Virus record (IMG/VR): IMGVR_UViG_3300029822_000012
Coordinates: 1 to 56,627 of that record
Length of the DNA stretch: 56,627 bases
Source: a virus
Taxonomy: Duplodnaviria > Caudoviricetes
Direction: 5' to 3' (one strand)
This document shows, one piece after another, positions 4,120-54,049 of the stretch (positions are counted from its first letter, which is position 1; each line of letters starts with the position of its first letter). A model generated the notes under the pieces. The model worked only from the letters and a program-made list of their open reading frames with translations. It was not told the origin of the DNA and ran no database searches. Both the position numbers and the translations under genes were made by a program.

Positions 4120-7100
4120 ATGCCTATTTACGAAAGCAACGGGAAAAGATATAGCATACCGGAAGATAAAGTAAATGACTTCCTGAAAGCACGGGAAGGC
4201 GCTAAGCTGGTTGATGAAACACCGTTTTATCTAAGCAATCAACAACCACAAGGAGTAAGCAAACCAGCGGTAAAACAACCACAGCAGCCGAATGTTACAG
4301 TACAGGAAGAGCCGCAAGAAAGCACTATTGATATGTCTAACCTGTTCTCGAAGCACGTTGCTCGGGGTAATGCATTTGACAATGTCGAGGGTGGTATTTC
4401 ACTACGTGATACTGCCAAGGTTGGGCATCTCGGACGGAGCAATAATCAGGGGGGCATACCGGATGCTATGAAAGATGCTTACCAGAACTACAAAAGCGGT
4501 GAGCAGTTTAAAAGCAGTATTCAGGATCAACTCGAAGCATACCGCATTGATAATCAAGGCAAATTACAGGATAGGTATAAAGACTTACAGGCACGTGAGC
4601 AGGAGTATGAGAGAACTAAGTCAGGATTTCAAAAGCTTGCCACAGCAGGATCAGCAAGAATGAGCGACAGGGCTTTAATACAGCTTGACGAGGACTACTC
4701 CAACTACAAGTTTGCGTCCGACTACATTAACGAAGCACAACAATTAATTTCCAACGTTCAGGATGAAAAAGGTATCCTAAAGGGTGTAGGTGATGCCATA
4801 TTCGATTATGACACATGGATATTAGGAATTGAAAACACTCGCAAGAACGCATACACTAACACGGCAATACAGAAGCTTGAGAGGGGTGAAGAACTCACAG
4901 ATAGTGAGAACGCTCTTCTTGATGCTATGGCTCTCAATCTTGCAGCAAGTGCCTACTATGGCTCTGATCTTAAAAGACAATACAACTGGGGGCAGATAGC
5001 AGGTGAATCACTTCCGTTCATGATGGAGTTCATTCTTAATCCTTTCGCTAAAATGGGGAAAGGTGTAGGAAAAGCAATTGCAAAATACGGAATAAAACGA
5101 TTTGGCAAAAAGGGTGCAGGCGCACTCGCAACACGTGTGGGCGGCTCACTCGCGAGTGATATTGTTGGAGCCAGCGCAATGGTCGGAACCACGGGGTTGC
5201 CACGCACATTTGGTGATGCAGCAAGCAGGCATTCAGGTGATGCTTATTACGATGTAGATGAAGAAGGGAAGATAGTATTCGGAGGCACGGAGGGAGCCGT
5301 GGATCCACTCGAAGCAATTACCAATGCATTCCTATCGCAAGGTATTGAATACTTTTCTGAGATGACGGGTGAACGTTTCTCGGAGGTTGGAAGATTGATA
5401 GGAAGAAGCCCGGCACTCAAAGGAATCAAAGCTACAGGATTTGGTCGAGCGATGACTAAATTCAATAGATCACCTGTTGTTAGAGAGCTTAGAGGGCTTG
5501 AGAAACGTGGTCAATGGTCGGGCCTTATAGGTGAGTGGTACGAAGAGAGAGTAGGTACTATGCTTAACTCATTATTCGTTGGTGACTCACATTTGTCGGA
5601 TCTATATGATTTAGAGCAACAGGTCGACACATTTATGGGACTATCCCTCACAGGTGGCCTCATGGGTGGAATCCGGACGACTGGTTATGCAGCAGACAGG
5701 GCGCAATCCGCAAAAAAATTACGCAGGACAGATAGAACAGCATCATCTTTATTCCCCAACTGGGACAAAATGAAGTCACAGATCGAGGGGATGACTTTAG
5801 CAGAAAGGAAAGCGTCTATACTTGATATTGCTATCTCAAAAGATATACCAGGACCGGCAAAAGCAGCATACACGGACTACGTGGGTGCAAAGAACTATCA
5901 AGACGTTCTTTCAGGAATCAAGGAAGAAAGCAATAAAGAAGAGTTGATCGATACCCGGCAAAGAATTAATCAGCTGGTAAATACAGCCGTTAATCCTCAA
6001 ACAAACAGTATCATTATAGCCAATGTTCCAGGTGCGAAAGAAGTTCGTCTATACGGGGATATAGTACTCAATGAAGATGGCACAATCAACGAGATAGACA
6101 GCGGCAGCGTATTTTACACCGCTGAGGACGGGAAGAGGCACGTTGTGTCTCCCAAGTTTGTAGAGATTTTAGAAAACACACCTGCAGATCAGGCAAAAGA
6201 AGAAACCTTAAATATTGTAACGGAAGAAATTGCAAACAGGCAAGCCAATGAAGCGGTAAGGCCTTACGAAATCGGAGAGGTTGTAACATTCTCTACTGAC
6301 GGGAAAACATCCCTTCTGGGGCAAGTAAGTGGACAAAATAAAGATGGCACATACCATATTGCTGTTGATGGCATGCCGGAACCACTTGCGATTGAACCAA
6401 GAATGATTATTCCAGAAGATAATATCAGGGGGATCGAAAATGGCATGCAGGTGCAATACAGGGATCAAGAAGGGAATATCCATACCGGTATTGTCAATGA
6501 TGCATTCGGGCTAAGACAGCAGGGATTAATAGATATAGATGGTAATATGGTGCCAACAACTGATATTATCCCGATTGACGAAATGACAGATATTGAAGCC
6601 GAAAATGAAGCTTCTCCGATAGCCGAAGCCGACAATATGCAAGCAGAAGTAGAAGAAACAGAGCAAAACGACACGACACCAGAACAGCAGGCAGAAATAC
6701 AAGCACAACTGCAAGCCGAACAGGAAAAACAGGCATTCATGGACTCTCTCCCGGTATTCGAAAAAGGGAAAAATCAAGGGGAGATAGACCAGTCAAGAAT
6801 GACACCTGAGCAGAATGTTCAGTACTTTGAATACACCTACGGAAAAGAGAAAGCGTTGCAGGCAGCAGAGAAGCAGGTGGACAACCTCAAGAAAAGACTC
6901 AAATCCGAACGAACGAAGCTTGATAATGATCCGTTTAACATTAAGCAAAACCAAAAGGTTGAAGACATTCAGACTCAATTGGATGCCTATTCTAACTACG
7001 TTAATCAGGAGAAACAAAGGCTGACAGAGGAAAACATCAAAAGTACACCGAAATCCTCTATAGCCGAAGACAGGCAAGCCAGAAGCGAAGATATAAGGCA

Positions 7101-10100
7101 GGAAGAAGCCGGTGCAACTGGTCAAGCAGATCAGTCCATCATTGAGAAGTGGAGTAACGCAGAAAAGATAGAGGGAATCGAAGATGTTATCACTCTATCA
7201 AATGGTGAGAAAATTGAAGGCAGGTATGTACTTACAACGGCAGATGCACCTTCACCAAGCCATGATATCGAGAGAAACTTCGCGAAAACGGTCGGTTTCC
7301 CAGTTAATGAACAGGGAAATACTGTTAATGACAGAGATTACGAGGCTGATCTCACGGCACAAACACTTGTACAGCAGAGAGCAAACAACTATGACGAGAG
7401 AGCGGTACAAACACCCGTGGTTGTTAGTCAGGATGGCGTTGTCTTATCAGGGAATGACAGAACAATGGCTGGACAGATTGCAGCAATAAACGGCACGGAT
7501 GGCGCATACACGAGCTACATTGAACGATATGCCAATAGGTGGGGGTTCACACCAGAACAAGTGCAATCAGTGCAGAATCCGCGCATTGTGTTCGTTCCTA
7601 ATAATCCCATGCCGTACAATACAGCGACGTTCGCTAAATTCAATGCAGAAGAAAAGAAAACGCAGAACTCCCTTGAAGCAGCCATAAAAGCGAGCAAAAG
7701 CATTTCAAGAGAAGTTGTTATTCCGTTAGCAGAGACCATCGAGAATTTCGACAAGCTTACTGATTTCTATAGCAGTGCACCTGCAATCAAGAAAACCATC
7801 GATGCACTACTGCAGAATGGAGTGATCCAGCCTAACGAGCTGCCTCGATTGATGGATGGCAACTTGTTGAGTGCAGAGGGGAAATCGTTCCTTGAAACGA
7901 TAATGTTAGGGTCTGTCCTCGGTGAGCAGGCACTCAGAGAAGTAGACCAGATGCGAAGCGTAAGACAAACCCTTATGCGGACCATGCCTCAACTGTTCAG
8001 GAACTCTTCATTGAAGGAATACTCTTTAATGGGTGAGCTAAACAATGCAATCCATCTGCTGTATGAAGCCAAACAAAATGGAAGCACCATCACCCTGCAC
8101 CTAAAGCAGGGCAATCTGTTTGAGCTTTCAGCGGAAGAGGTATATAGTGAAACTGAAAAATTGTTATCTTTGATGCTCGAGGGCGAAAAGGATACTACTT
8201 TCAGAAATATCTTTGAAGCGTTCAATAAAAAAGCAGTATCTATTGAATCCGGGCAGGTGGATCTTTTCGATGGTATCATGGAAAAGCCTGATTTATTAAA
8301 ACAAATACTTGAAATATATGGACAGCAAGAAACAGAAAGCAGTGAACAAGCTGAATCTCCTGATGGAATCGATAGTCGAAGTGAAGAGCGAAGAGAAGAA
8401 CAGCGACCAGAAGAGCAATCAACAGACGAAGGAACAGGACAACAGCAAGAAGTAGAAGAACCGGACAGCTACATTCAAAAGACTGTTAATAGATGGGTAG
8501 ACCTTTACGAAAAGGGAGAGTATGAGGAAATATTTGATGACGTGGTGTTCAACAATGTTGATGCGAATAGGCCATACATCAAGCCATTCGAAGAAAGAGT
8601 TGGTATAACCATACCTGATATTTCTACCAAGAAGAAGAAAAGGGACTTCATTAAATCGCTTAGGGAGAAACCCATTATCAACATTGTTGAACACGCTAAC
8701 AATGTTGTCAAGAATGAAGAGATCCGTGTAGAAGCCGACAAGACAGATACTAAACCATCAGAAGCACAAAAGAAAGCCGGGAACTACCGTAAAGGCCATG
8801 TAAACATCCAGGGTTTCGATATAACCATCGAAAACCCGGCAGGATCCGTTCGCTCCGGTGTGAACCAGGACGGAACTGAATGGAGTAACACAATGCAAAA
8901 CCATTACGGTTACTTTAAAAGAACAAATGGCAAAGATGGCGACCAAATTGATGTTTTTGTAGGTAATAAGCCCGAAAGCAATCATATATTTGTTGTAGAT
9001 CAAATCAACACCGAAACCAAAGAGTTTGACGAAAGCAAGGTTATGCTCGGCTTTGATACCTTGCAGGAAGCTAAAGATGCCTATCTATCGAACTACGAGG
9101 AAGGATGGCAGGGATTAGGGTCCATCACAACAGTTGATGTTGATACATTCAAAGAATGGGCAAAAGATAGAAAATCACAAAGAAAGCCCTTCAGTGAATA
9201 CAGAGATGTCCAATCCAAACAAGTACCAAAAGAATACGGTGCAGAGAACAAAGGAGTAACTACCGAGCAGTACGAAGAGCTTAAGCAGCGTATGAGGGGC
9301 TTGCTTAACAACCTGAACGTGGGCTTTAATCCTGAAATATTTACCATAGGGGCGCAAATGGCAGCCTACCACATGGAGGCAGGCGCACGAAAGTTCGCGG
9401 ACTACGCAACCAGAATGATTAATGATTTAGGTGAAAATGTAAAGCCTTACCTGAAATCATTCTACGAGGGCGTGCGTGCAATGGGCAATGAGTACGAGGG
9501 CATGGACTCCTATAAGTATGTAAAGGATTTTGATGTTGAAAGTTTAGGCAAGGAAGTACAGAAAAAAACAGAAGAAAAACAAACTGATAATAAAAAAGAT
9601 GATGTACCTTTGAGGAAAGGACCTCAACAGGGATCACTATTTGACAACGTAAATACAGAAGAAGATGGAAGCAGACAACAAACAAACACCCGAGCAGATA
9701 ATAGACAGTCTGAATCTGACAGAGGAAGACTTCCCGAATCTGAACAGGTACCAGAGCAAGGAGTATCTTCTGAGGACGCTTCAAGGACTGGCGAAAGCGA
9801 GCGGATGCTCACTGAAAGCGGCAGCGGTCAACCTCGAACACGACATGAGCATGACGTAAGCAGGGAGTACTCCAATGAAGAAATACACGGCATTGTATCA
9901 TCAGTAACCGAGATAAAAGACGGCAAAGTTGAAATAACCGGCGAGATTACCGATGATATCAAAACCATCGCGGGAAGATACAAGAGCGGTGGTGTTGCAA
10001 AAGAAGGCAGGGGAGTACTCGATGAATATTACACGAGTGAAAGGATAGTTGATGCAGTAGCAGAAATACTATCAAAATATATTAAACCTAATACTAATAC

Positions 10101-13100
10101 ACGTGCATTAGAGCCAAGCGTGGGAATTGGCAACTTCATAGATGCGCTGCCAAACAAAGGCGAGATTGTTTCCTTCGAGATAAACGAAACAACAGCACGA
10201 ATAGCGAAAATACTTCATCCGAACATAGAGGTTAATCTTCGTCCGTTTGAAACAGAGTTTATCGATGAAAAGGGCAATAAAAAGCCAATGCCATCGAAGT
10301 ACGATATTGTCGTTGGTAATCCTCCCTACGGACAACACAGAGGTAAATACAAGGGATTAGGTGAAGAAAGCAGAATCAGCAGGTACGAAGATTACTTTGT
10401 GAAAAGAGGCCTTGATGTACTTAATGAAAACGGTATTCTCGCGATGGTCCTTCCAAGCGGATGGATGAATCGCAATAAGCTTGAAAATGGATATAGAATA
10501 CTGGATGCCTACAGGCTTCCTACCGGCGTGTTTGAAGGCACTGACATCGGCACTGATATTGTGGTGCTGCAGAAAGACTCAAAGCATAAATCTAAAGAAA
10601 ATCACAACTACTTTGATAGCAATCCGGCGAACATATTAGGTGAAACCAAAGAGAGAAAGAATCGCTTTGGCAGAATGGAAGAGTACGTTGATGGAGACAT
10701 TGACAGTGCGATGGATGCGTTAAGGCAAAATGAGGCAAAAAAGATCGCCTCCGATCTACATATTGAACCAACTCGGGACAATGTAAATGAAATTGACGAA
10801 GCGGTTAAAGAGGCTACAACAAGCGATGGGGCGAAAAAGGTAGTAAGGGCTACAAGAGCAAAGAAAAGCACTGCTACAGCACCCGAGAGTGGCAAAATAG
10901 TGATTACACCGAGTCAGCTAAAGTATGAATTTAAAAGGGGCGATGAAGTTGTACCGGCAGCTGATCAATTCCCGAATAAATTCAGCAAAGAGGAATCGGA
11001 TGCATTTAGGGACACCGACTATTCAGGGGTATTCAAGAATCCCGAAAAACACCGGAGATATGCAAATTACTACGCGGGTAAATGGATGCATGACTTCTAT
11101 TACGCGGAAGGTAATATATACGACAGGCTTGAGCAGTTAGAGAGGGATAGGGATAATATTAGCAAAGAGCAGTACGACAAGCAGAGACAAATGCTGCAAG
11201 ATGTTCTTCCAGATCAGAAAACACTGGGTGAAATTAATATTAATCCGAACACCGCGTTTGTGAAGAACCTTAATCTTCCATCTTCTGAGAGTGAAAAAAA
11301 ATCATTGCAAGACCGGTTCCTTGAGTTTGCCGGGAATCTCCCGAGAGACGCATTTGGCAGCTCTAACTACTGGGAAGTTAGATCGTATGTTCTCAACGAA
11401 CAGGTGTATGGCCAAGACAAGGCAAGAAACCAGCTTGTACGCGAAAGAAGAAAGAGAGTAGGCAAAGATTTGTTCCATAAGTTCCTGAGAGAAGAGCTTA
11501 CGGATACGCAGAGGAAACAAGTAGAATATGCATTCAACAGGGAGTATAACGCTGTTTATAGACCAGACTATGCAAAGGTGCCAATGTTCTCAAGCATCCA
11601 TAAAAACTTTAGAGGGAAGCCTTTCGAGCTTACAGAGGTGCAGAAAGCCGGTATCGGTCGCATGACCGTAAAAGGCGTTGGGGTGCTGGCCCATGAAGTT
11701 GGGTTTGGAAAAACACTAAGTGCTATTCTCTCCATGCATGAAGCGATGGATAGGGGATATACTAAAAAACCTCTTATAGTAGTGCCAAACGACAGCATAT
11801 TGAAACAGTGGGTTGAAACAATAAATGACATCCTCCCGGAAGCGACGGTGAATGTGCTTGGAAATTTAGGTGTAAAATACAATCTCGATAACTTCAATGT
11901 AAACGATGGGGAATACACTATTGTAACGTATCAAGGATTTAAGAAGCTATCCTTTAGGAACAATGTTTACGACAAGCTTGCCCAAGACTTTCATTATATT
12001 TCTGACACAGATCTTGATAAACAGAAATCGACACGTGAATCGGAGAAAGAAAAAGCCGATATTCAAGAGACAGTTGGTAAAATGCAACGTCAAGGATCGT
12101 ACAGTTTCGAGGATGCCGGGTTTGATTACCTTACATTTGATGAAATCCATAACGCCAACCACATTGTAGGCAAAGTGCAAATTGACCGAAAAGACCATTC
12201 GGATTTCAGGAGTCAATCACAAAACACGTCAGATTTAGGCATTAAAACGTGGGTGGCCGCACAGTACATTCAGCAACAGAACGATGGTAGAAACGTACTG
12301 TTATTAAGCGCGACGCCGTTCACCAATAAGCCACTCGAATACTACTCTATCTTGTCGCTCGTGGCAAATTCGACATTGAAACGTATGGGCTTCTACCAAG
12401 TGGATCAATTCTTCGAGACATTCATGGAAGCTGATAACGATCTTGAAATTGCTGCCAACGGCAAAGCACAACAAAAAACCAATGTTCGCAGGTTCAGGAA
12501 TAATGGTCTGTTTAACCAGCTTCTTGGAGAATACATTGACATTAAAGGCGAGCAGGACAACCCCGATCTTGTAAGACCGGAGAGGATCAACAAGGAGTAC
12601 AAAATACCGCAGAACAATCTCACGCAGGATGCACTTGCGCAAGCACAGGCATTATTGGAAGATGGAGAGACTGTATTGTCAGGGTTAACTCAATCGAGAC
12701 TGATAGCTTTCTCCCCTTACGCTTCGTACTTGTCTAACGAGTCTCCACAGTCACATAAAGAGTTTGTTGAGAATAGCCCCAAGATACATGGCACGATTAA
12801 GCTTATAGAGCAGAACAGAAAGGACAACGCGGGTGCCGGGCAGATCGTATATTCTGAATTAGGGGTAGATTTCTTTCCATATATCAGGGATTACTTGATA
12901 AACGAAAGCAAATTTAAAGCCAGTGAAGTAGCAATAATAGCGGGGTCCACTTCTGCAACAGAAAGGACAAGAATACAGAGTGAATTTAACAAAGGCGCCA
13001 TAAAAGTTATTCTCGGTTCACCGGCAATCAAAGAAGGAATGAACCTTCAGGAGAATACAACAGATATGTATATTCTTTCCCTACCCTATAACTTCACACA

Positions 13101-16100
13101 ACTAAGGCAAGTAGAAGGTCGTGGATGGAGGCAGGGTAACACTTGGCAGAATATCAGGGTAAACTACATGCTGACCAATGATAGCGTTGATATTTTCATG
13201 CTTCAGAGGCTTCAAATAAAACAAGGGCTCTACAACGAAGCAATGAGGCAGGGGGCAGAGACCATAGATGTAAGCGACATCAATACAGAAGAGCTAAAGA
13301 ACGCGCTTATAACCAATCCCGAAACACGTGCAGACCTTGAGATAACAGTCGAGAGGAACAGGCTCGAAGCAGAAAAAGAGCGTATAAATGCCGACCTGGC
13401 ATTTATATTGAGGAAGCACAAAAAGTTCAACGAGTTACGGTCAACGGTTGATCAAAAGAGGGAGAGTGTTAGAAATTACGAGAAAAACGCGGAAAAAGAC
13501 AGCTGGTGGAACGGGTATGTTGAAAGAGAAAAAAGGAACCTGTTAAAATACGAGAATGATCTTCAAGAGGAAAAGTTGAACATAGAGAAAAAGGGTGTTA
13601 ACGTTGATGATATTGATAATCAAATTGAAAAATCAAATGCTCAAATACAATCCCTCGACAATGAGATAGAAGGATTAAAAGATGAATACACCAAGCTGGT
13701 AGATAAGTATAGGAAAGAGAGAGAAGAGCTCTCAAAAGAGAGTGGTAACCTTCTTGAAAGCCACCTACAAGAGAGAGCCAATGAAAACAAAGGAGGATTC
13801 TATGAAAAAAGAGACAACACACTCTTCCGCTCTAATGATTCTCGTGAAGCTTATGCTGAAAGAGAGTGGAATCGAGCAAAGAATGCAGCAAATGAAATAG
13901 CTTCCCGTTTGGGTGTAGAGATTGATATCCTCGAAACCACCGATGGGCTTACCGGAAAGAAAGCGGAAGCCAAGGGATGGTATGATCCTGAGACGGGGAA
14001 GATAGTCATCGTAATGCCAAACCATAGGAGTTCAGGTGATGTTCAAGCCACATTGCTACATGAGACGGTGGGGCATCATGGCTTACGTGAGCTGTTTGGT
14101 GAACACTTTGACACTTTCTTGGATAATGTGTTCAACAATGCTGACGAGGGCATCCAGAGAGCCATACGCAATATAGAAAAAGAGCAGAGGCTTGACAGAA
14201 GAACCGCCACGGAAGAATACCTTTCGTGGTTAGCAGAAGACGGCAGCCTTCTGGAAGGGGATGGAATGAGAAGCTGGTTCGGCAAGGTAAAGCAATTCTT
14301 CCTCGATATGTTGGCCAAGGTAGGGATAAATCTTGATTTCAGGTTATCGGATAATGAATTACGATATATCCTTTGGCGAAGTTACCAGAACTTGGCAAAT
14401 CCGGGAAGGTACAAGACCCCCTCGGATCAGGCAAGGGATTCAGCGATGCAATCAGAGCTTAAAGTGGGGAGTTTTGCGGAAGTAGAACATATCGAGAATG
14501 AGGTAGCAGATCTAAGATTCCGAATGACGCAACCTCCACGGAATGTTTCAGAAGCCGCAGAAGCCGCAAATTCAAGCATGACCGAGCAATTAAGACAGGA
14601 GTACGACAGGAAGTACAGCAAGTTTGCCACACGATTCCGAGAGGCATGGGAAGACATGTATCTTCCGGTTAAACAATTCTTGGATGTATTAAGAGGGAAC
14701 GGTATTGAAGTTGCAGAGTATAACGACTTCTATAAGCAAGCTACAGCACTGTCAGGTAAGAATGATGCACAACTGGATCATTTCAGAAAGGCATTCCAAA
14801 AACCAATTACAGAGCAAATAAGCAACCTTGAAAAGCTCGGTTTCGAGTACCGAGATATAGAGAACTATGTTTTTGCCAAACATGGACTTGAACGTAATGA
14901 CTTCATGGCAAAACAGGAAGCAAGAGATCGCTATGCAAAAGACATTCAGGACCTGCAAAAAGACTACAAGGATGGCAAGATCGGTGAGGAAGAGCTTGAA
15001 ATGGGCATAGATGCTATAAATCTACAGATAGAAGATCGTTATGAGCATCTTTTGGAGACAAAGGACTATTCAGGTATAACAGCACTTGAAGAAGAATTTG
15101 ACAAGACAGCTGAAGAGTACATAACTGAATTTGAACAAAAAGCCGAAGAAGAAAACATAGCCAAGTTATGGGATGCAATCAAAAAAGCAACCGATTACAC
15201 GCTTGAAAGGCAGTACAAGTCCGGAATGATCAAGAAGGAAACCTTGGATGAGCTTAGATCGAGGTATGATAACTATGTTCCATTACGCGGACATGATGAA
15301 ACAACAGCAGAGGATCGTTGGGATTATACACCCGATATGGGTACATATTTCTCCGCTCCACTGTTGAAAGCACACGGTAGAAGATCAAGGGCAGAGAGTC
15401 CATTTGCATACATAGAGCAGATGGCCCACTCGGCTATTACATGGGGAAATAAGAATGATCTTAAACAGACGATGCTGAGACTGGCACGCACTGACACAAA
15501 AGGTTTAATGAGTGCTTCCCAAACATGGTACCGAAACATGGGAACCAAGGAGGATCCGAGATGGGAACAGGTTAGTGCCGAATACAACGAGAATGTAGAT
15601 CAATACCTGCAAAATCAGCGTGACTTTGAAGAGCAAATGCGAGAGCTTCATGCAGAGGGAATGGCATTCCAAAGTGGTGCGAGAAAACTTGATATCGGAG
15701 GAATATTTATCAAGCCAAAACAGGCAGAGCAGCATGAGCTGCGTGTGTACCAGAACGGAACAAGTTACACTGTTTACATTAACGCTAACCCCGCGGTTGC
15801 ACAGGCAATAAACGGATCTAACAGGAAAGATAAATCGAAGAGTTTAGGCGCATTTAGCACTGTTACACGAAACATGGCCGCGAACTTCACTACTCGCAAT
15901 CCACTTTTCGTGATGACTAACTTATCGAGAGACTACATTTTCGCATCATCCATATTAACAGTAAAAGAGTCTCCGGCTTATGCAGTTAAGTTTCAAAGGA
16001 ACATTCCTAACGCAATGGGGTCATTGCAGAGATACGTAAGAGGTAAGCTCGATATGACTAACCCGAACGATGTAATGATGTATGAATACATTATGAATGG

Positions 16101-17535
16101 AGCCAAAACCGGTTTCTCCAGCATCTTCGAGCTTGATAGGGTTGCAAAGAAGCTGAAGCGTGAAGCCGAAAAAGGGAACAAGAAAAAAAGTGCTCTTGAT
16201 TACGGGAGAAATGTTCTTGATGTTGTGGATTCATTAAACGAAATAGCAGAAAACATGAGCAGACTTTCGGTTTACATAACATCAAGGAAGGAGGGTAGAT
16301 CAATTACACAGTCAGTGCATGATGCAAAGAACGTAACAGTCAACTTCAACCAGAAGGGCGCAGGTAGGAGTGCGGCAAAGAACAGGTTTGAAGCATTCAT
16401 ATTTAATGCTTCAAGTTATGTGAGGCCTCTTTACCTATTTAGTAATGCAGCTATACAATCATTGAGCAATTTCTCAAAGGTCGCAGTCAAGAACCCTAAA
16501 GGAATGTCAGCACTTGTAGCCTCTTATGCACTTAGTGGATTTATTGCACCGTTCCTTGCAGGGTTAATAGGTGGTGATGATGGAAAAGAGGACTACATGA
16601 AGCTATCGGACTGGGAGAGACAAAACAACTGGTGTATTTGGCTTCCAAATGGATTTGTAAAAATACCTCTTCCCCATGAGTTGAGGGTTTTCCACAGAAT
16701 GGGTGACAATATCTACCAAGCTGCATTCGAAAACAGAGACATTTTCCAAACACTACTCGATGTTTCCATGGGATTTAGCGACTTGCTACCTGTCAATCCT
16801 TTGGGAGCCACGGATGCGAGCTGGGCAGAACTTGCACCAGATGCTATCAGACCATTCGTTCAACTCGTACCCAATACCAATTTCATGGGAAGCAGGATAT
16901 ATGATAAATGGGCAAGGAAGCACGCACCCGGATACCAAAAGGTTAGAACAAACAAAAAAGGAGAACCTTATGCACCAAAAGCATTAATAGGTATATCGAA
17001 ATGGATAGACAACACTACCGGTGGTGATGGGGTTAAGAAAGGCGTTATCAGCCCTCCTAATCCAGATATAGTGCATCATTTAGCAAGAGGGTACTTCGGT
17101 GGCTTGTATACATTAGCAGAACAAGGGATTAATATTATCGCGCAAGCATACAGCTGGACGCAAACAGGGGATCTTGATCTAAAGATAAGGCAAACACCAC
17201 TTCGCACCTTCTATGCAGATGCAAACGACTTGAATATACAAGGAAGCGGACTAAATAGTAGGTACTGGAAAGTAACAGATGATATTCTTAAAAGCAGAGG
17301 ACTAATCAAAGGCTATTCCGATCAGCTCGTGAATGGCGAAATAACGCATGATGCATTTCAAGAAAAGATAAAGGGCTTGAATGTTCCGCTTGTTAACGAG
17401 ATTAACGACTACATTAAAACAATAAGAAAATACGAGAATGCATTGAAGGAGATGAATTCAGACGAGCAGAAAGAAGCGGAGAGAATCATTTCAGACCTTA
17501 AAAAAACAGTTATAGAGTTGGGAAATGGAATTTAA
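4120..17535 (+). CDS. Giant DarB-like polyvalent protein (ParB-like, inorganic pyrophosphatase-like, N6-adenine methyltransferase, SNF2 helicase, metallopeptidase, LPD38-like domains)
   Basis: 4471 aa; VVLSGNDR; GNYRKGHV..DGDQIDVF; ALEPSVGIGNF and GNPPYG; AHEVGFGKT, DEIH, LSATP, QVEGRGWRQGN; LLHETVGHHGL. Confidence 0.88.
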   Translation: MPIYESNGKRYSIPEDKVNDFLKAREGAKLVDETPFYLSNQQPQGVSKPAVKQPQQPNVTVQEEPQESTIDMSNLFSKHVARGNAFDNVEGGISLRDTAKVGHLGRSNNQGGIPDAMKDAYQNYKSGEQFKSSIQDQLEAYRIDNQGKLQDRYKDLQAREQEYERTKSGFQKLATAGSARMSDRALIQLDEDYSNYKFASDYINEAQQLISNVQDEKGILKGVGDAIFDYDTWILGIENTRKNAYTNTAIQKLERGEELTDSENALLDAMALNLAASAYYGSDLKRQYNWGQIAGESLPFMMEFILNPFAKMGKGVGKAIAKYGIKRFGKKGAGALATRVGGSLASDIVGASAMVGTTGLPRTFGDAASRHSGDAYYDVDEEGKIVFGGTEGAVDPLEAITNAFLSQGIEYFSEMTGERFSEVGRLIGRSPALKGIKATGFGRAMTKFNRSPVVRELRGLEKRGQWSGLIGEWYEERVGTMLNSLFVGDSHLSDLYDLEQQVDTFMGLSLTGGLMGGIRTTGYAADRAQSAKKLRRTDRTASSLFPNWDKMKSQIEGMTLAERKASILDIAISKDIPGPAKAAYTDYVGAKNYQDVLSGIKEESNKEELIDTRQRINQLVNTAVNPQTNSIIIANVPGAKEVRLYGDIVLNEDGTINEIDSGSVFYTAEDGKRHVVSPKFVEILENTPADQAKEETLNIVTEEIANRQANEAVRPYEIGEVVTFSTDGKTSLLGQVSGQNKDGTYHIAVDGMPEPLAIEPRMIIPEDNIRGIENGMQVQYRDQEGNIHTGIVNDAFGLRQQGLIDIDGNMVPTTDIIPIDEMTDIEAENEASPIAEADNMQAEVEETEQNDTTPEQQAEIQAQLQAEQEKQAFMDSLPVFEKGKNQGEIDQSRMTPEQNVQYFEYTYGKEKALQAAEKQVDNLKKRLKSERTKLDNDPFNIKQNQKVEDIQTQLDAYSNYVNQEKQRLTEENIKSTPKSSIAEDRQARSEDIRQEEAGATGQADQSIIEKWSNAEKIEGIEDVITLSNGEKIEGRYVLTTADAPSPSHDIERNFAKTVGFPVNEQGNTVNDRDYEADLTAQTLVQQRANNYDERAVQTPVVVSQDGVVLSGNDRTMAGQIAAINGTDGAYTSYIERYANRWGFTPEQVQSVQNPRIVFVPNNPMPYNTATFAKFNAEEKKTQNSLEAAIKASKSISREVVIPLAETIENFDKLTDFYSSAPAIKKTIDALLQNGVIQPNELPRLMDGNLLSAEGKSFLETIMLGSVLGEQALREVDQMRSVRQTLMRTMPQLFRNSSLKEYSLMGELNNAIHLLYEAKQNGSTITLHLKQGNLFELSAEEVYSETEKLLSLMLEGEKDTTFRNIFEAFNKKAVSIESGQVDLFDGIMEKPDLLKQILEIYGQQETESSEQAESPDGIDSRSEERREEQRPEEQSTDEGTGQQQEVEEPDSYIQKTVNRWVDLYEKGEYEEIFDDVVFNNVDANRPYIKPFEERVGITIPDISTKKKKRDFIKSLREKPIINIVEHANNVVKNEEIRVEADKTDTKPSEAQKKAGNYRKGHVNIQGFDITIENPAGSVRSGVNQDGTEWSNTMQNHYGYFKRTNGKDGDQIDVFVGNKPESNHIFVVDQINTETKEFDESKVMLGFDTLQEAKDAYLSNYEEGWQGLGSITTVDVDTFKEWAKDRKSQRKPFSEYRDVQSKQVPKEYGAENKGVTTEQYEELKQRMRGLLNNLNVGFNPEIFTIGAQMAAYHMEAGARKFADYATRMINDLGENVKPYLKSFYEGVRAMGNEYEGMDSYKYVKDFDVESLGKEVQKKTEEKQTDNKKDDVPLRKGPQQGSLFDNVNTEEDGSRQQTNTRADNRQSESDRGRLPESEQVPEQGVSSEDASRTGESERMLTESGSGQPRTRHEHDVSREYSNEEIHGIVSSVTEIKDGKVEITGEITDDIKTIAGRYKSGGVAKEGRGVLDEYYTSERIVDAVAEILSKYIKPNTNTRALEPSVGIGNFIDALPNKGEIVSFEINETTARIAKILHPNIEVNLRPFETEFIDEKGNKKPMPSKYDIVVGNPPYGQHRGKYKGLGEESRISRYEDYFVKRGLDVLNENGILAMVLPSGWMNRNKLENGYRILDAYRLPTGVFEGTDIGTDIVVLQKDSKHKSKENHNYFDSNPANILGETKERKNRFGRMEEYVDGDIDSAMDALRQNEAKKIASDLHIEPTRDNVNEIDEAVKEATTSDGAKKVVRATRAKKSTATAPESGKIVITPSQLKYEFKRGDEVVPAADQFPNKFSKEESDAFRDTDYSGVFKNPEKHRRYANYYAGKWMHDFYYAEGNIYDRLEQLERDRDNISKEQYDKQRQMLQDVLPDQKTLGEININPNTAFVKNLNLPSSESEKKSLQDRFLEFAGNLPRDAFGSSNYWEVRSYVLNEQVYGQDKARNQLVRERRKRVGKDLFHKFLREELTDTQRKQVEYAFNREYNAVYRPDYAKVPMFSSIHKNFRGKPFELTEVQKAGIGRMTVKGVGVLAHEVGFGKTLSAILSMHEAMDRGYTKKPLIVVPNDSILKQWVETINDILPEATVNVLGNLGVKYNLDNFNVNDGEYTIVTYQGFKKLSFRNNVYDKLAQDFHYISDTDLDKQKSTRESEKEKADIQETVGKMQRQGSYSFEDAGFDYLTFDEIHNANHIVGKVQIDRKDHSDFRSQSQNTSDLGIKTWVAAQYIQQQNDGRNVLLLSATPFTNKPLEYYSILSLVANSTLKRMGFYQVDQFFETFMEADNDLEIAANGKAQQKTNVRRFRNNGLFNQLLGEYIDIKGEQDNPDLVRPERINKEYKIPQNNLTQDALAQAQALLEDGETVLSGLTQSRLIAFSPYASYLSNESPQSHKEFVENSPKIHGTIKLIEQNRKDNAGAGQIVYSELGVDFFPYIRDYLINESKFKASEVAIIAGSTSATERTRIQSEFNKGAIKVILGSPAIKEGMNLQENTTDMYILSLPYNFTQLRQVEGRGWRQGNTWQNIRVNYMLTNDSVDIFMLQRLQIKQGLYNEAMRQGAETIDVSDINTEELKNALITNPETRADLEITVERNRLEAEKERINADLAFILRKHKKFNELRSTVDQKRESVRNYEKNAEKDSWWNGYVEREKRNLLKYENDLQEEKLNIEKKGVNVDDIDNQIEKSNAQIQSLDNEIEGLKDEYTKLVDKYRKEREELSKESGNLLESHLQERANENKGGFYEKRDNTLFRSNDSREAYAEREWNRAKNAANEIASRLGVEIDILETTDGLTGKKAEAKGWYDPETGKIVIVMPNHRSSGDVQATLLHETVGHHGLRELFGEHFDTFLDNVFNNADEGIQRAIRNIEKEQRLDRRTATEEYLSWLAEDGSLLEGDGMRSWFGKVKQFFLDMLAKVGINLDFRLSDNELRYILWRSYQNLANPGRYKTPSDQARDSAMQSELKVGSFAEVEHIENEVADLRFRMTQPPRNVSEAAEAANSSMTEQLRQEYDRKYSKFATRFREAWEDMYLPVKQFLDVLRGNGIEVAEYNDFYKQATALSGKNDAQLDHFRKAFQKPITEQISNLEKLGFEYRDIENYVFAKHGLERNDFMAKQEARDRYAKDIQDLQKDYKDGKIGEEELEMGIDAINLQIEDRYEHLLETKDYSGITALEEEFDKTAEEYITEFEQKAEEENIAKLWDAIKKATDYTLERQYKSGMIKKETLDELRSRYDNYVPLRGHDETTAEDRWDYTPDMGTYFSAPLLKAHGRRSRAESPFAYIEQMAHSAITWGNKNDLKQTMLRLARTDTKGLMSASQTWYRNMGTKEDPRWEQVSAEYNENVDQYLQNQRDFEEQMRELHAEGMAFQSGARKLDIGGIFIKPKQAEQHELRVYQNGTSYTVYINANPAVAQAINGSNRKDKSKSLGAFSTVTRNMAANFTTRNPLFVMTNLSRDYIFASSILTVKESPAYAVKFQRNIPNAMGSLQRYVRGKLDMTNPNDVMMYEYIMNGAKTGFSSIFELDRVAKKLKREAEKGNKKKSALDYGRNVLDVVDSLNEIAENMSRLSVYITSRKEGRSITQSVHDAKNVTVNFNQKGAGRSAAKNRFEAFIFNASSYVRPLYLFSNAAIQSLSNFSKVAVKNPKGMSALVASYALSGFIAPFLAGLIGGDDGKEDYMKLSDWERQNNWCIWLPNGFVKIPLPHELRVFHRMGDNIYQAAFENRDIFQTLLDVSMGFSDLLPVNPLGATDASWAELAPDAIRPFVQLVPNTNFMGSRIYDKWARKHAPGYQKVRTNKKGEPYAPKALIGISKWIDNTTGGDGVKKGVISPPNPDIVHHLARGYFGGLYTLAEQGINIIAQAYSWTQTGDLDLKIRQTPLRTFYADANDLNIQGSGLNSRYWKVTDDILKSRGLIKGYSDQLVNGEITHDAFQEKIKGLNVPLVNEINDYIKTIRKYENALKEMNSDEQKEAERIISDLKKTVIELGNGI

Positions 17536-28306: not shown

Positions 28307-29596
28307 ATGAATCAATTAGGAAATGCCGACTTAGTGCAATCCATGACACGCAAAGATCACGTGCTGGTTTCTATTGGAGGCAGGGTAAAGAGGATTATGC
28401 TTGACAACCTCGCGAATGCAATAAATATTGCAGGCTCTGAGATGTTGAGACAGACAGCTTGGGGGGTGCCTGTAAAGCAATCAACCCAGTCAAATACAGA
28501 TTGGGGCAGAATAGGCAATCTAACAGCTTGGCAAGAGTATAAACGAAGGAGCGGTCGATTTCTGGTAACAGCAGACGGCAGGGCCGCAAAACTCAACCCT
28601 TCAAGTTCTACTATTTACGCGGACGGAACGCCACTGGACGAGACAAAAGGCAATATTATGGTTATCGCTCCACGTCTCTATTTCAGAGTGGAAGAAGACT
28701 CCGTACTGGGATTAACATTGTGGATGTCGGAGCTTCCTATCGGTGGGTATTACATCGGGAACACGGGGTACAATGTTATGGGCTCATATTTAGGAACGAT
28801 GGACGGCTCAAAGCTTGTTTCACGCAGAGGCAGTCCTCCAAAGGGAGCAATGGCTATTGATGCATTCTGGAATGCCGCACAAGTAAATGGCTCATCGTGG
28901 GGATTAGTTGATTATGATCTTCGCAAACTCATGATCATGATAGCACTTTCTGAGTACGGGAACACCAATATTCAAGAAATGCTTGGTTATGGAATGGGAG
29001 GATCCGGTGGATCCACATGGGATGAAGCAATATTAAAACCCACAGGTGAAACTGCACACTTGGGAGACCACTTCGGTACAGCACTATCAGGATTAGAGAT
29101 TGGTACAGATACATGCCATGTAAGCTTGATGGGTATCGAGGATCCATATAGCTGGCTCTGGGAAAACGTCCAAGGTATCTACTTTGGATCATCGGATAAT
29201 GTAACACAGACAGGAGCGGAAGTGTTTTTGTATTCCGGAAACAGGATGCCATCGGCAGCAGAACTGGCAGATAAACCACAGGGCGATTACAGGGTACTTG
29301 AGAGGATCCCTTCAGCATCAAGTTCATACATAAAAGAGATGATTATAGGACCTCAATTTGATATAATACCTACTGTTATAACCGGAGGAGGATCTACCTC
29401 ATATTGGGCAGACGGTTATTGGTCAGCACCTACAGGTCAGCTTGCCCGGTGGGGCGGGTCTGCGGCTGGCGGGTCGGTCTACGGCTTGTCGGCTCTGTCT
29501 GCGGGTTTCGCTTGGTCGTATTCGAATGCGTCCTTCGGCTCTCGCCTTGCGTATTATGGCGATTTAAGGTTTGTTAACGGCCGTGAGATCAATTGA
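28307..29596 (+). CDS. DGR target protein, probable receptor-binding protein with C-type lectin (Mtd/FGE-like) C-terminus
   Basis: GIEDPYSWLWE and C-terminal WGGSA..G..YG..SFGSRL; contains the VR. Confidence 0.9.
   Translation: MNQLGNADLVQSMTRKDHVLVSIGGRVKRIMLDNLANAINIAGSEMLRQTAWGVPVKQSTQSNTDWGRIGNLTAWQEYKRRSGRFLVTADGRAAKLNPSSSTIYADGTPLDETKGNIMVIAPRLYFRVEEDSVLGLTLWMSELPIGGYYIGNTGYNVMGSYLGTMDGSKLVSRRGSPPKGAMAIDAFWNAAQVNGSSWGLVDYDLRKLMIMIALSEYGNTNIQEMLGYGMGGSGGSTWDEAILKPTGETAHLGDHFGTALSGLEIGTDTCHVSLMGIEDPYSWLWENVQGIYFGSSDNVTQTGAEVFLYSGNRMPSAAELADKPQGDYRVLERIPSASSSYIKEMIIGPQFDIIPTVITGGGSTSYWADGYWSAPTGQLARWGGSAAGGSVYGLSALSAGFAWSYSNASFGSRLAYYGDLRFVNGREIN
29439..29549 (+). repeat. DGR variable repeat (VR)
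   Basis: 111-bp ungapped match to 29661-29771; 20 mismatches, all opposite TR adenines. Confidence 0.97.
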
Positions 29597-29660: not shown

Positions 29661-29771
29661 AGCTTGCCCGGTGGGGCGGGAATGCGAATAACGGGTCGAT
29701 CAACGGCTTGTCGGCTCTGAATGCGAATAACGCTTGGTCGAATTCGAATGCGAACAACGGCTCTCGCCATG
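29661..29771 (+). repeat. DGR template repeat (TR)
   Basis: Intergenic copy of VR with 11 AAY codons in the VR reading frame. Confidence 0.97.
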
Positions 29772-29968
29772 ACAATATTAATCGTATTAATTTACGAAAT
29801 CCCTGATCCATGACCCTACTGGAAAGCGGTAGCGTAGTGGCATGGCCACGAAGTCAAAACATATAAGCGGAAAGGTCTCGTTTCTTGCGAAGAGACAAGC
29901 AGTGTTAGTAGGTTAATTCTCGAAAGCTCTGGGCAAATAAAAATGCAAGCCTGAAGAAGGCAAACGTT
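29772..29968 (+). ncRNA. Spacer portion of DGR RNA
   Basis: Non-coding TR-RT interval with stems (CCATG..CATGG, GTCTC..GAGAC) and a GTTAGTAGG..CGAAAGC motif. Confidence 0.5.
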
Positions 29969-30601
29969 ATGGTAAAGAGGAAAGGATACATATTAGAGAA
30001 GATTGCAGACATGGATAATCTTAGACAAGCAGACAGGGATGCACAAGCCGGAAAGGTTCATAAGAACAGGCAAATAAGGCGTCATAACATGCGTGCGGAA
30101 GAGAATCTATCGAAGCTTAGGCAAATGATCTTGAGTTTAGACTTTCCAAAACCTAAGTACACGAAGATGACTGTTGTAACCGATGCAGGCAAAGAAAGGG
30201 AAATAGAAAAGCAAAACTACTTCCCCTGGCGGATCCTGCATCATGCAATATTCAGGGTAATAGGTGATGATATCCACAAGAGCCTCATATACGATACATG
30301 CGCGTGCATAAAGGGCAAAGGCTTACATTTCGGCGTACACCGAATGAAGATGTTTTTGCGGAGATATCCACAGTATAAAGTATTTGTTAAGACTGACATC
30401 CGTAAATTCTACCAAAGTGTGCCACACGACATTGTAGTAAAGGCATTGAGGCGCAAGTTCAAAGATGAAAGGTTTATAAGATTGATCGAGATCACATTAT
30501 TGTCTTACGACAGCGGTCTGGACATAATCCAAAAATTGAAGAAAGATGAAGAGAAAAAGAGGGGTTCCTATTGGAGCGTACCCCAGTCAGCCACTGGGTA
30601 A
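29969..30601 (+). CDS. DGR reverse transcriptase, N-terminal piece
   Basis: MVKRKG.., GKEREI, RILHHAI, CACIKGKGLH, KTDIRKFYQSVPH, FKDERF. Confidence 0.85.
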   Translation: MVKRKGYILEKIADMDNLRQADRDAQAGKVHKNRQIRRHNMRAEENLSKLRQMILSLDFPKPKYTKMTVVTDAGKEREIEKQNYFPWRILHHAIFRVIGDDIHKSLIYDTCACIKGKGLHFGVHRMKMFLRRYPQYKVFVKTDIRKFYQSVPHDIVVKALRRKFKDERFIRLIEITLLSYDSGLDIIQKLKKDEEKKRGSYWSVPQSATG

Positions 30602-30893
30602 TTTCGTGTTGAGCGTGGTAGACCACCATGTAAAGGAAGTATTAAGAGTAAAATGTTACGAAAGGTATTGCGATGACAGCGTGATGCTGGCTAAAACTAA
30701 ACCAGAAGCAAAGTTCCTCCTTAAGGAATACAACCGGGTATGCACCGAGTTGGGATTAGTTGTAAAAGCGGACAGTTTTATCGCGCCAATTGAACATAAA
30801 AAAGATGGCAAGAATAAGAGAAAAAGAAAGCGTATGCGGTCGAAGAATAGACTTTCTGGGGTACCAGTTCACAAACGAAAAAACATTGCTTAG
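30546..30893 (+). CDS. DGR reverse transcriptase, catalytic middle piece
   Basis: GVPIGAYPSQ (DGR-type SQ motif) and RYCDD; own ATG in +1 frame. Confidence 0.85.
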   Translation: MKRKRGVPIGAYPSQPLGNFVLSVVDHHVKEVLRVKCYERYCDDSVMLAKTKPEAKFLLKEYNRVCTELGLVVKADSFIAPIEHKKDGKNKRKRKRMRSKNRLSGVPVHKRKNIA

Positions 30894-31383
30894 AAAGGCT
30901 ACAAAGAAACGGTTCGCAAAGAAAATAAAAAAGGTAAAAAGTAGAAAGCGAAGAAAAGAAATACTCGCTTCATACTGGGGAATGTGCAAGCATGGAGATT
31001 GCAATAATTTATGGAGCGTAATAACAGATGATTATATGGGATTTTCAAAAAAAGGAATAAGGCAGAGTAATAGGACAAAGGAAGGTAAGAAGTTCTATGA
31101 TGTTTCAACAACCCGTCTTATAGATATACTGAATGTTCCGGTGACGATAATTGACTTTGAAAGCGGTATAAAGACAAAACAGGGAGAAGACAGGTATTGT
31201 GTATTGTTCGAGTTGGAAGGCAAGAAGCAGAAGTTTATTACCAACTGCTTTAACATAAAAGATATACTCGACCAGAGCAGGGAAGCAGAGGAAAAGGGGA
31301 GAAAGATATTTCCTGTTGACAATGTAATAATAAAACGTAGACCACTAAGTGAAGGCAAGAGTACATATTACTTTGAAGAATAA
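30805..31383 (+). CDS. DGR reverse transcriptase C-terminal piece fused to an extra ~115-aa domain
   Basis: IDFLGY, LLRK, ASYWGMCKHGD, then in-frame domain from MGFSKKG (ATG 31036); ATG 30805 in +1 frame. Confidence 0.82.
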   Translation: MARIREKESVCGRRIDFLGYQFTNEKTLLRKATKKRFAKKIKKVKSRKRRKEILASYWGMCKHGDCNNLWSVITDDYMGFSKKGIRQSNRTKEGKKFYDVSTTRLIDILNVPVTIIDFESGIKTKQGEDRYCVLFELEGKKQKFITNCFNIKDILDQSREAEEKGRKIFPVDNVIIKRRPLSEGKSTYYFEE

Positions 31384-31406
31384 TAACAACTATAAAAAAT
31401 ACAACT

Positions 31407-31772
31407 ATGAAATGTCAAGGTTCTTTTTCAAGCGATGAATTACAAGTTATTAAAGAGGGTAATCTGTTAAGAATATTCTTCGATTTAACACCCGCGAAGG
31501 ATGAGGAAAACGAAGTGATTGAAGGCATGTATGATTGCGAAAACGTGGATGTCGATAGCATGCAGTACGGGGATATTGTTTCTGCAATAATCCGAAGCAG
31601 ATACACTCAAGACACCGTAGAAGCGATCCTCTCCAATTACGAGGAAGCTAAAGATGCAACCTCTGATCTCGCACAGGAAAAAAGAGAAGAATATTCAGAC
31701 GAATACACTGATTACCAGAATTGGAGAAAGCATGCCAAGGATATTGCCCGACAAGTTTCCGACTTGCTGTAA
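31407..31772 (+). CDS. Hypothetical protein (possible tail-fibre chaperone)
   Basis: 121 aa acidic; IVSAIIRSRY..EAILSNY..YQNWRKHAK. Confidence 0.65.
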   Translation: MKCQGSFSSDELQVIKEGNLLRIFFDLTPAKDEENEVIEGMYDCENVDVDSMQYGDIVSAIIRSRYTQDTVEAILSNYEEAKDATSDLAQEKREEYSDEYTDYQNWRKHAKDIARQVSDLL

Positions 31773-53720: not shown

Positions 53721-53977
53721 ATTTTTACGTGTTTAGTTCAATTGTATTTGCTATCTGTATTACTGCATTGAGGAGCGTGGAGGCTCGAACTCCATCAGCA
53801 TATATGGTTAGCGCAACTTCCTCCTGTCTTACGACTATTAACCTCTGCATTGTCTCGTCTTGCTTACCGTCAACCGTTAGCGCCTTTTCGCTTCGCTCCA
53901 CCGGTCTTTCCCGGTCGTCATCCACTTGCATCACACGTCTGCAATGCCAATCCTCTTATGGCCGATTATTCCCTTAG

Positions 53978-54049
53978 TTGCGGGGGACGGAATCGAACCG
54001 TCGAGGTTGGGGTTATGAATCCCAATTGAGAACCAACACTCTCCCCACA
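53978..54049 (-). tRNA. Atypical tRNA with CAT anticodon (Met/Ile2), possibly pseudo-tRNA
   Basis: Acceptor TGTGGGG/CCCCGCA, T-arm GACGG-TTCGATT-CCGTC, loop TTCATAA; aberrant D-arm and A-C mismatch in anticodon stem. Confidence 0.65.

Follow-up and report, generated by a model that had tools for sequence, protein, structure and literature searches.

A phage reverse transcriptase in three overlapping reading frames: conserved internal ATGs suggest separate initiation in a diversity-generating retroelement

A diversity-generating retroelement (DGR) in a virus of the Caudoviricetes (record IMGVR_UViG_3300029822_000012) has its reverse transcriptase (RT) laid out over three overlapping open reading frames (ORFs) of the plus strand, 29969-30601, 30546-30893 and 30805(30790)-31383, each successive one lying in the +1 frame of its predecessor. 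The window, as the word is used here, is the whole stretch of 56,627 nucleotides (nt) that was analyzed. From sequence comparisons we conclude firmly that this three-frame RT is real, conserved and selected; judging from its sister lineage, it is also tied to active adenine mutagenesis. As to its expression, we favor, at a probability of roughly 0.5, three separately initiated polypeptides that would assemble into one RT. The main argument for this three-cistron reading is an ATG at each of the two frame junctions that is conserved in the +1 frame while the amino acid it overlaps in the upstream frame varies.

One reverse transcriptase in three frames

The first-pass annotation of the window had described an RT spread over three overlapping ORFs, each in the +1 frame of the one before; the same ORFs and frames were recovered here, collinear on a single PHROG profile (Table 1). 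PHROG 1423 'reverse transcriptase' aligned with piece 1 over profile positions 95-273 (E 1.8e-41), with piece 2 over 282-364 (E 1.3e-19) and with piece 3 over 365-521 (E 6.9e-16). Since the profile is covered end to end and in order, the three pieces constitute one RT across three frames. Pfam by itself under-calls them: RVT_1 matched piece 1 (profile 10-101) and piece 2 (profile 115-186), both under the curated cut-off, and the Pfam search of the RT pieces gave no match for piece 3. Among PDB sequences, piece 1 was closest to 8ub7_A (E 2.2e-6), followed by a group II intron RT (1.4e-4), and pieces 2 and 3, searched singly, had no match. Entry 8ub7 is titled 'DGR ribonucleoprotein reverse transcriptase', and we take the RT of this series to be that of the DGR of Bordetella phage BPP-1.

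Table 1. Features of the DGR cassette and its two frame junctions, in window coordinates
Feature	Position	Strand	Description
DGR target gene, tail protein, 429 aa	28307..29596	+	PHROG 5302 'tail protein', E 9.9e-46; variable repeat (VR) at 3' end
VR	29439..29549	+	82% identity to template repeat (TR); within last 160 nt of target gene
TR	29661..29771	+	intergenic, 111 nt, 25 adenines
RT piece 1	29969..30601	+	fingers and palm motif A; PHROG 1423, RVT_1, PDB 8ub7_A E 2.2e-6
Junction-1 ATG	30546..30548	+	+1 frame, 5 codons ahead of G-V-P-I-G, over 0-frame GAT-G
End of conserved part of piece 1, K-K-R	30554..30562		last 13 codons of piece 1 are an unconserved tail over piece 2
RT piece 2	30546..30893	+	motifs B, C (YCDD) and D; PHROG 1423, RVT_1
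Junction-2 ATG	30805..30807	+	+1 frame, 11 codons ahead of G-R-R-I-D-F-L-G-Y (30838-30864), over 0-frame GAT-G
C-terminal basic stretch of piece 2	30810..30845		followed by unconserved tail over piece 3
RT piece 3	30805..31383	+	motif E/primer grip, thumb, extra C-terminal domain; PHROG 1423
C-terminal domain of piece 3, ~115 aa	31036..31380	+	PHROG 19665; starts at nearly invariant Met; absent from Bordetella DGR RT

An AlphaFold2 model of the single-ORF relative P0002 (42 aligned sequences; mean predicted local distance difference test score, pLDDT, 93) had as its best folds the DGR RT entries 8ub7 and 8ubd, with template modeling (TM) scores of 0.87-0.89 over the target (0.89 for 8ub7), ahead of group II intron RTs, G2L4, DRT9 and retron RTs. 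P0002 also matched 8ub7_A by sequence (E 2e-20). On the 8ub7_A alignment, junction 1 separates a block that ends close to motif A from the one that opens with G-I-P-I-G, and junction 2 falls within A-P-V-S / R-G-I-N-F-L-G-Y. The Bordetella DGR RT, the best PDB sequence match of both piece 1 and P0002, has the same motif B (I-G-x-x-x-S-Q), but its 328 aa form a single polypeptide in which the loops at both junction sites are short and the C-terminal extra domain is absent.

Relatives and distribution of the two splits

Searches by blastn returned six phage records at about 67% identity, namely those of LoVEphage, Bacteroides phage BI-TP1 and Phocaeicola phage PV4-TP1. In these records an annotated RT coding sequence (CDS) is followed by two small 'hypothetical' CDSs, and their ORFs share both break points of the window and its +1/+1 offsets. 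The first-pass annotation had been made in ignorance of a published case. A three-frame RT was already in print for Quimbyvirus, where the accessible text reads it as two programmed frameshifts (Benler 2021, PMC8008677). Quimbyvirus belongs to the LoVEphage lineage, because one Bacteroides dorei prophage aligns with each of them at about 95%. In the library searched, Quimbyvirus and programmed frameshifts in DGRs led to nothing beyond Benler et al., and the accessible parts of the LoVEphage paper and of a 2025 Nature paper on gut temperate phages (PMC12629997) make no mention of frameshifts.

The Quimbyvirus/LoVEphage records (MW660583, OY725593, PQ571265, PQ571302) share with the window the three ORFs offset by +1/+1, the breaks before motif B and motif E, the cassette order of target gene, TR and RT, the extra C-terminal domain and the adenine-specific change in the VR. 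They differ in sequence (about 67% nucleotide identity over the cassette) and in their junctions, a 12-mer common to both junctions being found only in the window. The window phage also differs in its 56.6-kb length, its 4471-aa ORF and its provenance, which is wastewater, compost and bioreactor contigs and not the human gut.

Searches of IMG/VR brought up 41 loci when piece 1 was the query and 80 when the query was an alignment of piece-3 homologues, many of the two sets being on shared contigs. Locus classes were set with core queries from several lineages, the window and duplicates being counted. By the frame change at junctions 1 and 2, 105 loci were +1/+1, 10 were 0/0, and two each were 0/+1, +1/0 and +1/+2; four loci were incomplete. 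The 65 unique RT sequences comprised 51 of the +1/+1 class (the window and 50 others), 10 in a single frame, two split at junction 2 alone (L044 and L045), one in frame at junction 2 (L019) and one with a further break at YCDD (L080). When junction-2-split loci were clustered at 80% amino acid identity of core 1, 15 of the 16 clusters were split at junction 1 too. The conservation in relatives that the first-pass annotation had proposed as a check was therefore found for the split points, common to 50 other unique sequences, and not for the shared 12-mer word of the supposed inserts, which is confined to the window.

Among more distant DGR RTs on viral contigs, 49 of 50 loci crossed junction 1 without a change of frame; the remaining one, L135, has a short ORF upstream. 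Twelve metagenome loci included two split at junction 2 only (L178 and L179) and one too short to class (L180), the others being in one frame. When 1.84 billion representative proteins were scanned with piece 3, 231 matched. Among them, P0002 (477 aa) and P0006 (492 aa) are full-length RTs in a single chain that share the C-terminal domain. P0001 and P0022, also among the matches, begin M-x(3,4)-R-G directly ahead of motif B and continue through junction 2; a search for the DNA of their lineage in viral and metagenome contigs found only relatives at 48% identity or less. Thus, judging from these sequences, the split at junction 2 appears to be the more widely shared of the two, and both splits seem to occur in all four combinations.

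The L019 locus (= L051; 1270-1435) lies on a LoVEphage-like contig and has A8 where A6 is found ahead of the junction-2 ATG, so that pieces 2 and 3 are in one frame and the basic tail is dropped. This run may be a homopolymer error, the metagenome being an old one, or a natural fused variant.

Anatomy of the junctions

Junction 1 was compared over 35 unique sequences. In the upstream frame, protein conservation reaches as far as ...[DN]-E-x-x-[KR]-K-[KR]; in the downstream frame it sets in at R-G-[VIL]-[PT]-I-G. The +1 Arg codon before the Gly varies synonymously (AGA, CGC, CGT, CGA), with the upstream frame becoming K-A-R, S-A-W or C-A-R in place of K-K-R, and the +1 frame must therefore be in use from that codon at the latest. 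A +1-frame ATG stands 4-8 codons upstream in 33 of the 35 sequences, the other two (L111 and L114) having TTG at that place.

Junction 2 was compared over 39 unique sequences; three loci with R-I-S-F-L-G-Y were missed by the search pattern, and their ATG was seen separately. Here a basic motif, R-K-R-[KQ]-R-[GS], is encoded in the upstream frame; its Arg, Lys and Gln codons vary synonymously between lineages, which indicates that the motif is translated and selected. The +1 frame is unconserved over this basic stretch; its conservation resumes some three residues ahead of G-R-x-I-D-[FY]-L-G-Y. In every lineage a +1-frame ATG lies directly ahead of the basic stretch.

Counted over the other unique RT sequences, with the window excluded, the ATG was present in 52/52 at junction 2 and in 50/52 at junction 1, where two had TTG. 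The 0-frame codon that overlaps it is AAT, GAT, CAT or TAT (Asn, Asp, His or Tyr) at junction 2 and AAT, GAT or TAT at junction 1. This NAT always precedes G, while the adjacent residues vary freely, and only 62% of the NAY codons in these genes end in T. What is invariant is thus the word ATG and not the amino acid that it overlaps.

The single-ORF relatives (P0002, P0006, L100 and L118-L126) have the same order of domains, including the extra one, with P0002 and P0006 at 52-53% identity to piece 3, but they are continuous in frame and lack R-K-R-Q-R-G in a short junction-2 loop; their junction-1 loop is longer (...K-K-R-x-x-C-x-W-x-S...R-G). The solved Bordetella-type RT likewise has a short junction-2 loop without a basic stretch, and the basic stretch is therefore an insertion. 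The conserved basic C-terminal tail of piece 2 (R-K-R-K/Q-R-G/S) was found only in lineages split at junction 2. The proposal that both junction stretches are loop insertions thus holds for junction 2 and finds no support at junction 1, where the nearest long-loop single-ORF relatives have the longer loop.

Past junction 1, piece 1 of the window reads on (30563-30601) from the conserved end as K-K-R-G-S-Y-W-S-V-P, and that of LoVEphage (L001, 3632-3735) as K-K-R-C-S-D-W-S. The likeness to the C-x-W-x-S...P loop of single-ORF RTs is probably due to chance, the spacing being different, or else a trace of the deletion that created the split.

Three blocks recur in order at both junctions of the window: TGRACATAA (30519 and 30791), AAAGATG (30542 and 30801) and AAGAGAAAAAGA (30549 and 30816). 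The first-pass annotation had placed them correctly, and each AAAGATG supplies, as read from the sequence, the ATG of the next ORF. The 12-mer has four copies in the window, two at the junctions and two elsewhere, against 0.04 expected from shuffles, and no 12-base word common to both junctions arose in 200 shuffles of the junction segments. In the 37 other unique lineages, however, the longest word common to both junctions had 5-9 bases, mostly as in shuffles. The idea of two related inserts of about 45 nt as a conserved feature consequently falls away, the shared 12-mer belonging to the window alone. It encodes K-R-K-R in the frame of piece 2 at both sites, piece 2 starting M-K-R-K-R-G and ending ...N-K-R-K-R-K-R. 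We read it as a lineage-specific likeness, apparently neither a mobile nor a conserved insert.

Separate initiation or frameshifting

The two readings offered at first pass, a heterotrimeric split RT and an RT recoded by two +1 events, are the two main ones left. Under separate initiation, the three ORFs would be three cistrons: piece 1 would be translated from 29969, piece 2 would initiate at the ATG at 30546 and piece 3 at the ATG at 30805. The three chains would then assemble as one RT fold, the first contributing the fingers and motif A, the second motifs B, C and D, and the third motif E, the thumb and the extra domain. We hold somewhat more tentatively a stricter form of this reading, in which the RT would be an obligate heterotrimer with a palm built over three chains, selected in at least 15 lineage clusters, and in which the basic tail and the OB-like (oligonucleotide/oligosaccharide-binding) domain might replace Avd in holding the template RNA.

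Beyond the conserved ATG, the distribution of the splits lends support to separate initiation, since they appear to be gained or lost independently: junction 2 alone is split in L044, L045, L178 and L179, and P0001 and P0022 start before motif B. The start context in the window points the same way. With a matrix built from 38 ORF starts of the window (RT excluded) and set against 1001 internal ATGs, the ATGs at 30546 and 30805 were the top two of the 30 RT ATGs, at the 98.9th and 99.1th percentiles of internal ATGs and at the 68th percentile of true starts.

Other observations weigh against separate initiation. The junction ATGs of relatives score low with the window matrix (medians of -3.4 and -1.6 at the two junctions, internal ATGs having -5.85), and only 4% and 8% of them rank above the 95th percentile of internal ATGs. 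When the matrix was built instead from 42 annotated starts of BI-TP1, the junction-1 ATG of that phage reached the 50th percentile and the junction-2 ATG the 92nd; the poor context at junction 1 also favors frameshifting. Adenine at position -3 is a positive determinant of starts in Bacteroidetes, according to the accessible text of PMC6847099. Against a background of 40%, it is enriched at junction 1 (23/31) and not at junction 2 (15/35). A +1 ATG also stands at the place corresponding to junction 1 in L118, one of the two single-ORF lineages with a long loop, and the junction-1 ATG could therefore be partly inherited. Over piece 2, the frame of piece 1 stays open through unconserved codons that number from 7 to more than 60, which is long for overlapping genes. 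Finally, we know of no RT with a palm built of three polypeptides, and a literature search on 'split reverse transcriptase' returned one unrelated paper.

The main alternative, proposed for Quimbyvirus in the accessible text of Benler et al. 2021 (PMC8008677), invokes two programmed +1 ribosomal frameshifts, one before R-G-V-P-I-G and one before G-R-x-I-D-F-L-G-Y, that would yield a single polypeptide. The basic stretches would then be internal loops, and unshifted ribosomes would yield truncated products. We consider this alternative less likely than separate starts, though it is their foremost competitor. It would explain why both offsets are +1 in all lineages, and it predicts equally well what is seen at both junctions, where only a few codons separate protein conservation in the 0 frame from that in the +1 frame. 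It would also render the long and variable 0-frame read-on harmless. Moreover, AG-AGG stands ahead of the +1 Gly in 29 of the 35 junction-1 sequences, and AG-AGG-G or a near variant is found at the switch in these and in several junction-2 sequences.

However, no word is invariant between the ATG and the switch at R-G, and no slippery site is conserved. The switch codon at junction 1 is AGG in 29/35, CGG in three, AGC in two and TGG in one; GCG-CGG, GCG-TGG and GAG-AGC occur there, and the window has CGG at junction 2 (ATG-CGG-TCG). A 0-frame stop is absent at the switch, stops being found at a variable distance and formed mostly from the ATT-GAT or ATT-AAC of I-D/N further on. Nor is AGG rare, as it accounts for 29% of the phage Arg codons and occurs 14 times in the RT. 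Phage codon usage, from which the host tRNA pool may differ, thus makes a 'hungry codon' unlikely. RNAalifold applied to 21 diverse lineages gave 0 conserved pairs around either junction, pseudoknots and upstream rRNA pairing lying outside that test. Above all, frameshifting leaves unexplained why AT-G is invariant while the overlapped amino acid varies.

The prfB gene illustrates what a programmed +1 shift can look like. Its shift site is fixed, CUU-UGA with an in-frame stop, in contrast to the RT of the window, where the switch comes without a stop, an invariant word or a rare codon. What prfB of Bacteroidia does have in common with the RT, as far as the accessible text goes, is a +1 frame change within a coding sequence and a host phylum that is that of the LoVEphage relatives (PMC10798248). 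The same text gives a frameshifting level for prfB of only about 7% in Flavobacterium johnsoniae (Naeem et al. 2024, PMC10798248). Two events at such a level would leave a full-length product of well under 1%.

A third group of schemes would combine separate starts with a minority of frameshifted fusions, or place the shift at NAT-G, or change the frame at the level of RNA. Both frames are constrained near the junctions, as such schemes would have it, and the A8 run of L019 puts pieces 2 and 3 in one frame; that locus comes from an old metagenome, though, and may carry a homopolymer error. No homopolymer is conserved at either junction, and there is none at junction 1 of LoVEphage, which makes transcriptional slippage unlikely. 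A shift at NAT-G would omit the conserved 0-frame K-K-R and R-K-R-Q-R-G, which vary synonymously. We regard these schemes as distinctly less probable than two programmed frameshifts.

Error and decay

An artefact was sought by aligning Logan contigs from three other studies to 29900-31450; being contigs, they may let rare variants escape. In the wastewater study (X3), a single contig (29900-31052) crosses both junctions with 2 substitutions and 0 gaps, and in the compost study (X5) another (29900-31279) does so with 17 substitutions and 0 gaps. In the bioreactor study (X7), contig pieces bridge junction 1, though not the A-run of junction 2, again with 0 gaps. A check of 30500-30900 for indels, suggested at first pass with reads in mind, thus came out clean with contigs from three other studies. 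In the productive frames, 15 of the 21 contig substitutions are synonymous and 6 are non-synonymous. All four variants in overlaps (4/4) are silent in the downstream piece and alter the upstream tail; those at 30594 and 30596, for example, change the tail of piece 1.

The first-pass annotation had also asked for the ratio of non-synonymous to synonymous substitution rates (dN/dS) in each piece. Pairwise medians among relatives were 0.08, 0.18 and 0.04 for the cores of pieces 1, 2 and 3, from 114, 55 and 79 ungapped pairs, respectively, with dS between 0.1 and 1.5. Values of 0.04-0.18 in all three pieces indicate purifying selection.

These results bear on the possibility that the frames reflect an assembly or sequencing error or a decaying RT pseudogene. 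Both junctions are A-rich, and decayed copies do occur in relatives (L112/L113 and L079/L080, and the deletion forms P0004 and P0018). Yet the independent contigs contain no gap, 50 other unique sequences have the same frames at very different nucleotide sequences, dN/dS is low in the pieces, and the VR changes lie at adenines only: between TR and VR of the window, 20/20 mismatches fall at TR adenines and 0 at the other 86 bases. The initial doubt about error or decay was well placed, and we consider either one highly improbable.

Decay can be recognized elsewhere in this RT family. L112/L113 (1770-2971) have lost piece 2 and the thumb, and L079/L080 carry an extra break at YCDD, where the 0 frame reads HRYCDACTNKG followed by a stop. 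As judged from their sequences, these loci stand in contrast to the window. A single 203-nt contig from an RNA run (X19) matched the RT at 30047-30249; it is no proof of transcription and is uninformative on frames.

The C-terminal domain

The extra domain of piece 3 also leads a separate existence. Stand-alone proteins of 112-123 aa begin exactly at its nearly invariant Met (P0009, P0013, P0024, P0051, P0052 and P0065), and deletion variants retain it while losing catalytic parts (P0004, P0018 and L112/L113; L112 2642-2971). In BI-TP1, this Met has the best start-like context of the 34 RT ATGs. The domain may be made on its own or have a function of its own. Its AlphaFold2 model (pLDDT 80) gave weak OB-fold-like matches to PrgE, RPA70N and SSB (best E 0.039, TM about 0.3), and the fold search returned nothing at E <= 0.001.

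The cassette and its phage

The DGR cassette of the window phage consists of the target gene, TR and RT only. A profile search of the 56.6-kb record for the Avd family (PF05635) gave nothing at E <= 0.01, a control genome being matched, in what is a sequence-level test. The Bordetella DGR RT works with Avd; not all DGRs have this protein. Speculatively, an RNA-holding role could fall to the basic tail of piece 2 and to the C-terminal domain of piece 3. The target protein matched no Pfam family.

Activity was judged from the LoVEphage cluster, which has the same split RT, the window phage being represented by a single TR/VR pair. Near-identical Quimbyvirus genomes have VR substitutions at 22 adenine sites, according to the accessible text of PMC8008677. 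Repeating this activity test of Benler et al. on the loci in hand, we counted 24 distinct VRs and 3 TRs; the VR varied at 23/24 TR-A columns and at 10/72 non-A columns. The RT of the window is predicted to be that of an active DGR in a temperate tailed phage of the Quimbyvirus/LoVEphage type.

The record is estimated to be 98% complete and also encodes an integrase, a portal protein, a terminase-like protein, a DnaB-like helicase, RecT and an SbcC-like protein. One open frame of 4471 aa (4120-17535, plus strand; 13.4 kb) takes up just under a quarter of the genome between small ORFs and the portal gene. The sole tRNA gene is a tRNA-Met (CAT) on the minus strand (53977-54049); LoVEphage is reported, in the accessible portion of its paper, to have nine tRNA genes. 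DNA near-identical to 29900-31450 was seen in runs labeled as fermentation, wastewater, compost, bioreactor and anaerobic-digester metagenomes. The wastewater, compost and bioreactor runs were confirmed by aligning contigs; the sister lineage in print is from the human gut.

Implications

The window adds modestly to what was known, extending a published oddity to a diverged phage of engineered and compost habitats. What appears to be new relative to the literature is the pattern of ATG over NAT, the lack of a conserved shift site, rare codon or RNA structure, the wider spread of the junction-2 split, and the confinement of the related inserts to the window.

DGR RTs are under development as tools for targeted mutagenesis, and a single-chain structure was solved only recently. 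In a survey of 1,241 gut viromes, LoVEphage was the most common induced phage, at about 8%, according to the accessible text of PMC12629997, and the question of how its RT is expressed therefore concerns a common element. If two +1 frameshifts are at work, they would represent a rare case of tandem recoding in Bacteroidota phages and could throttle mutagenesis. If the favored reading of three small chains is true, this would be the first split RT known to us; it would mean that a polymerase palm can withstand being broken twice, and split or inducible mutators could be modeled on it.

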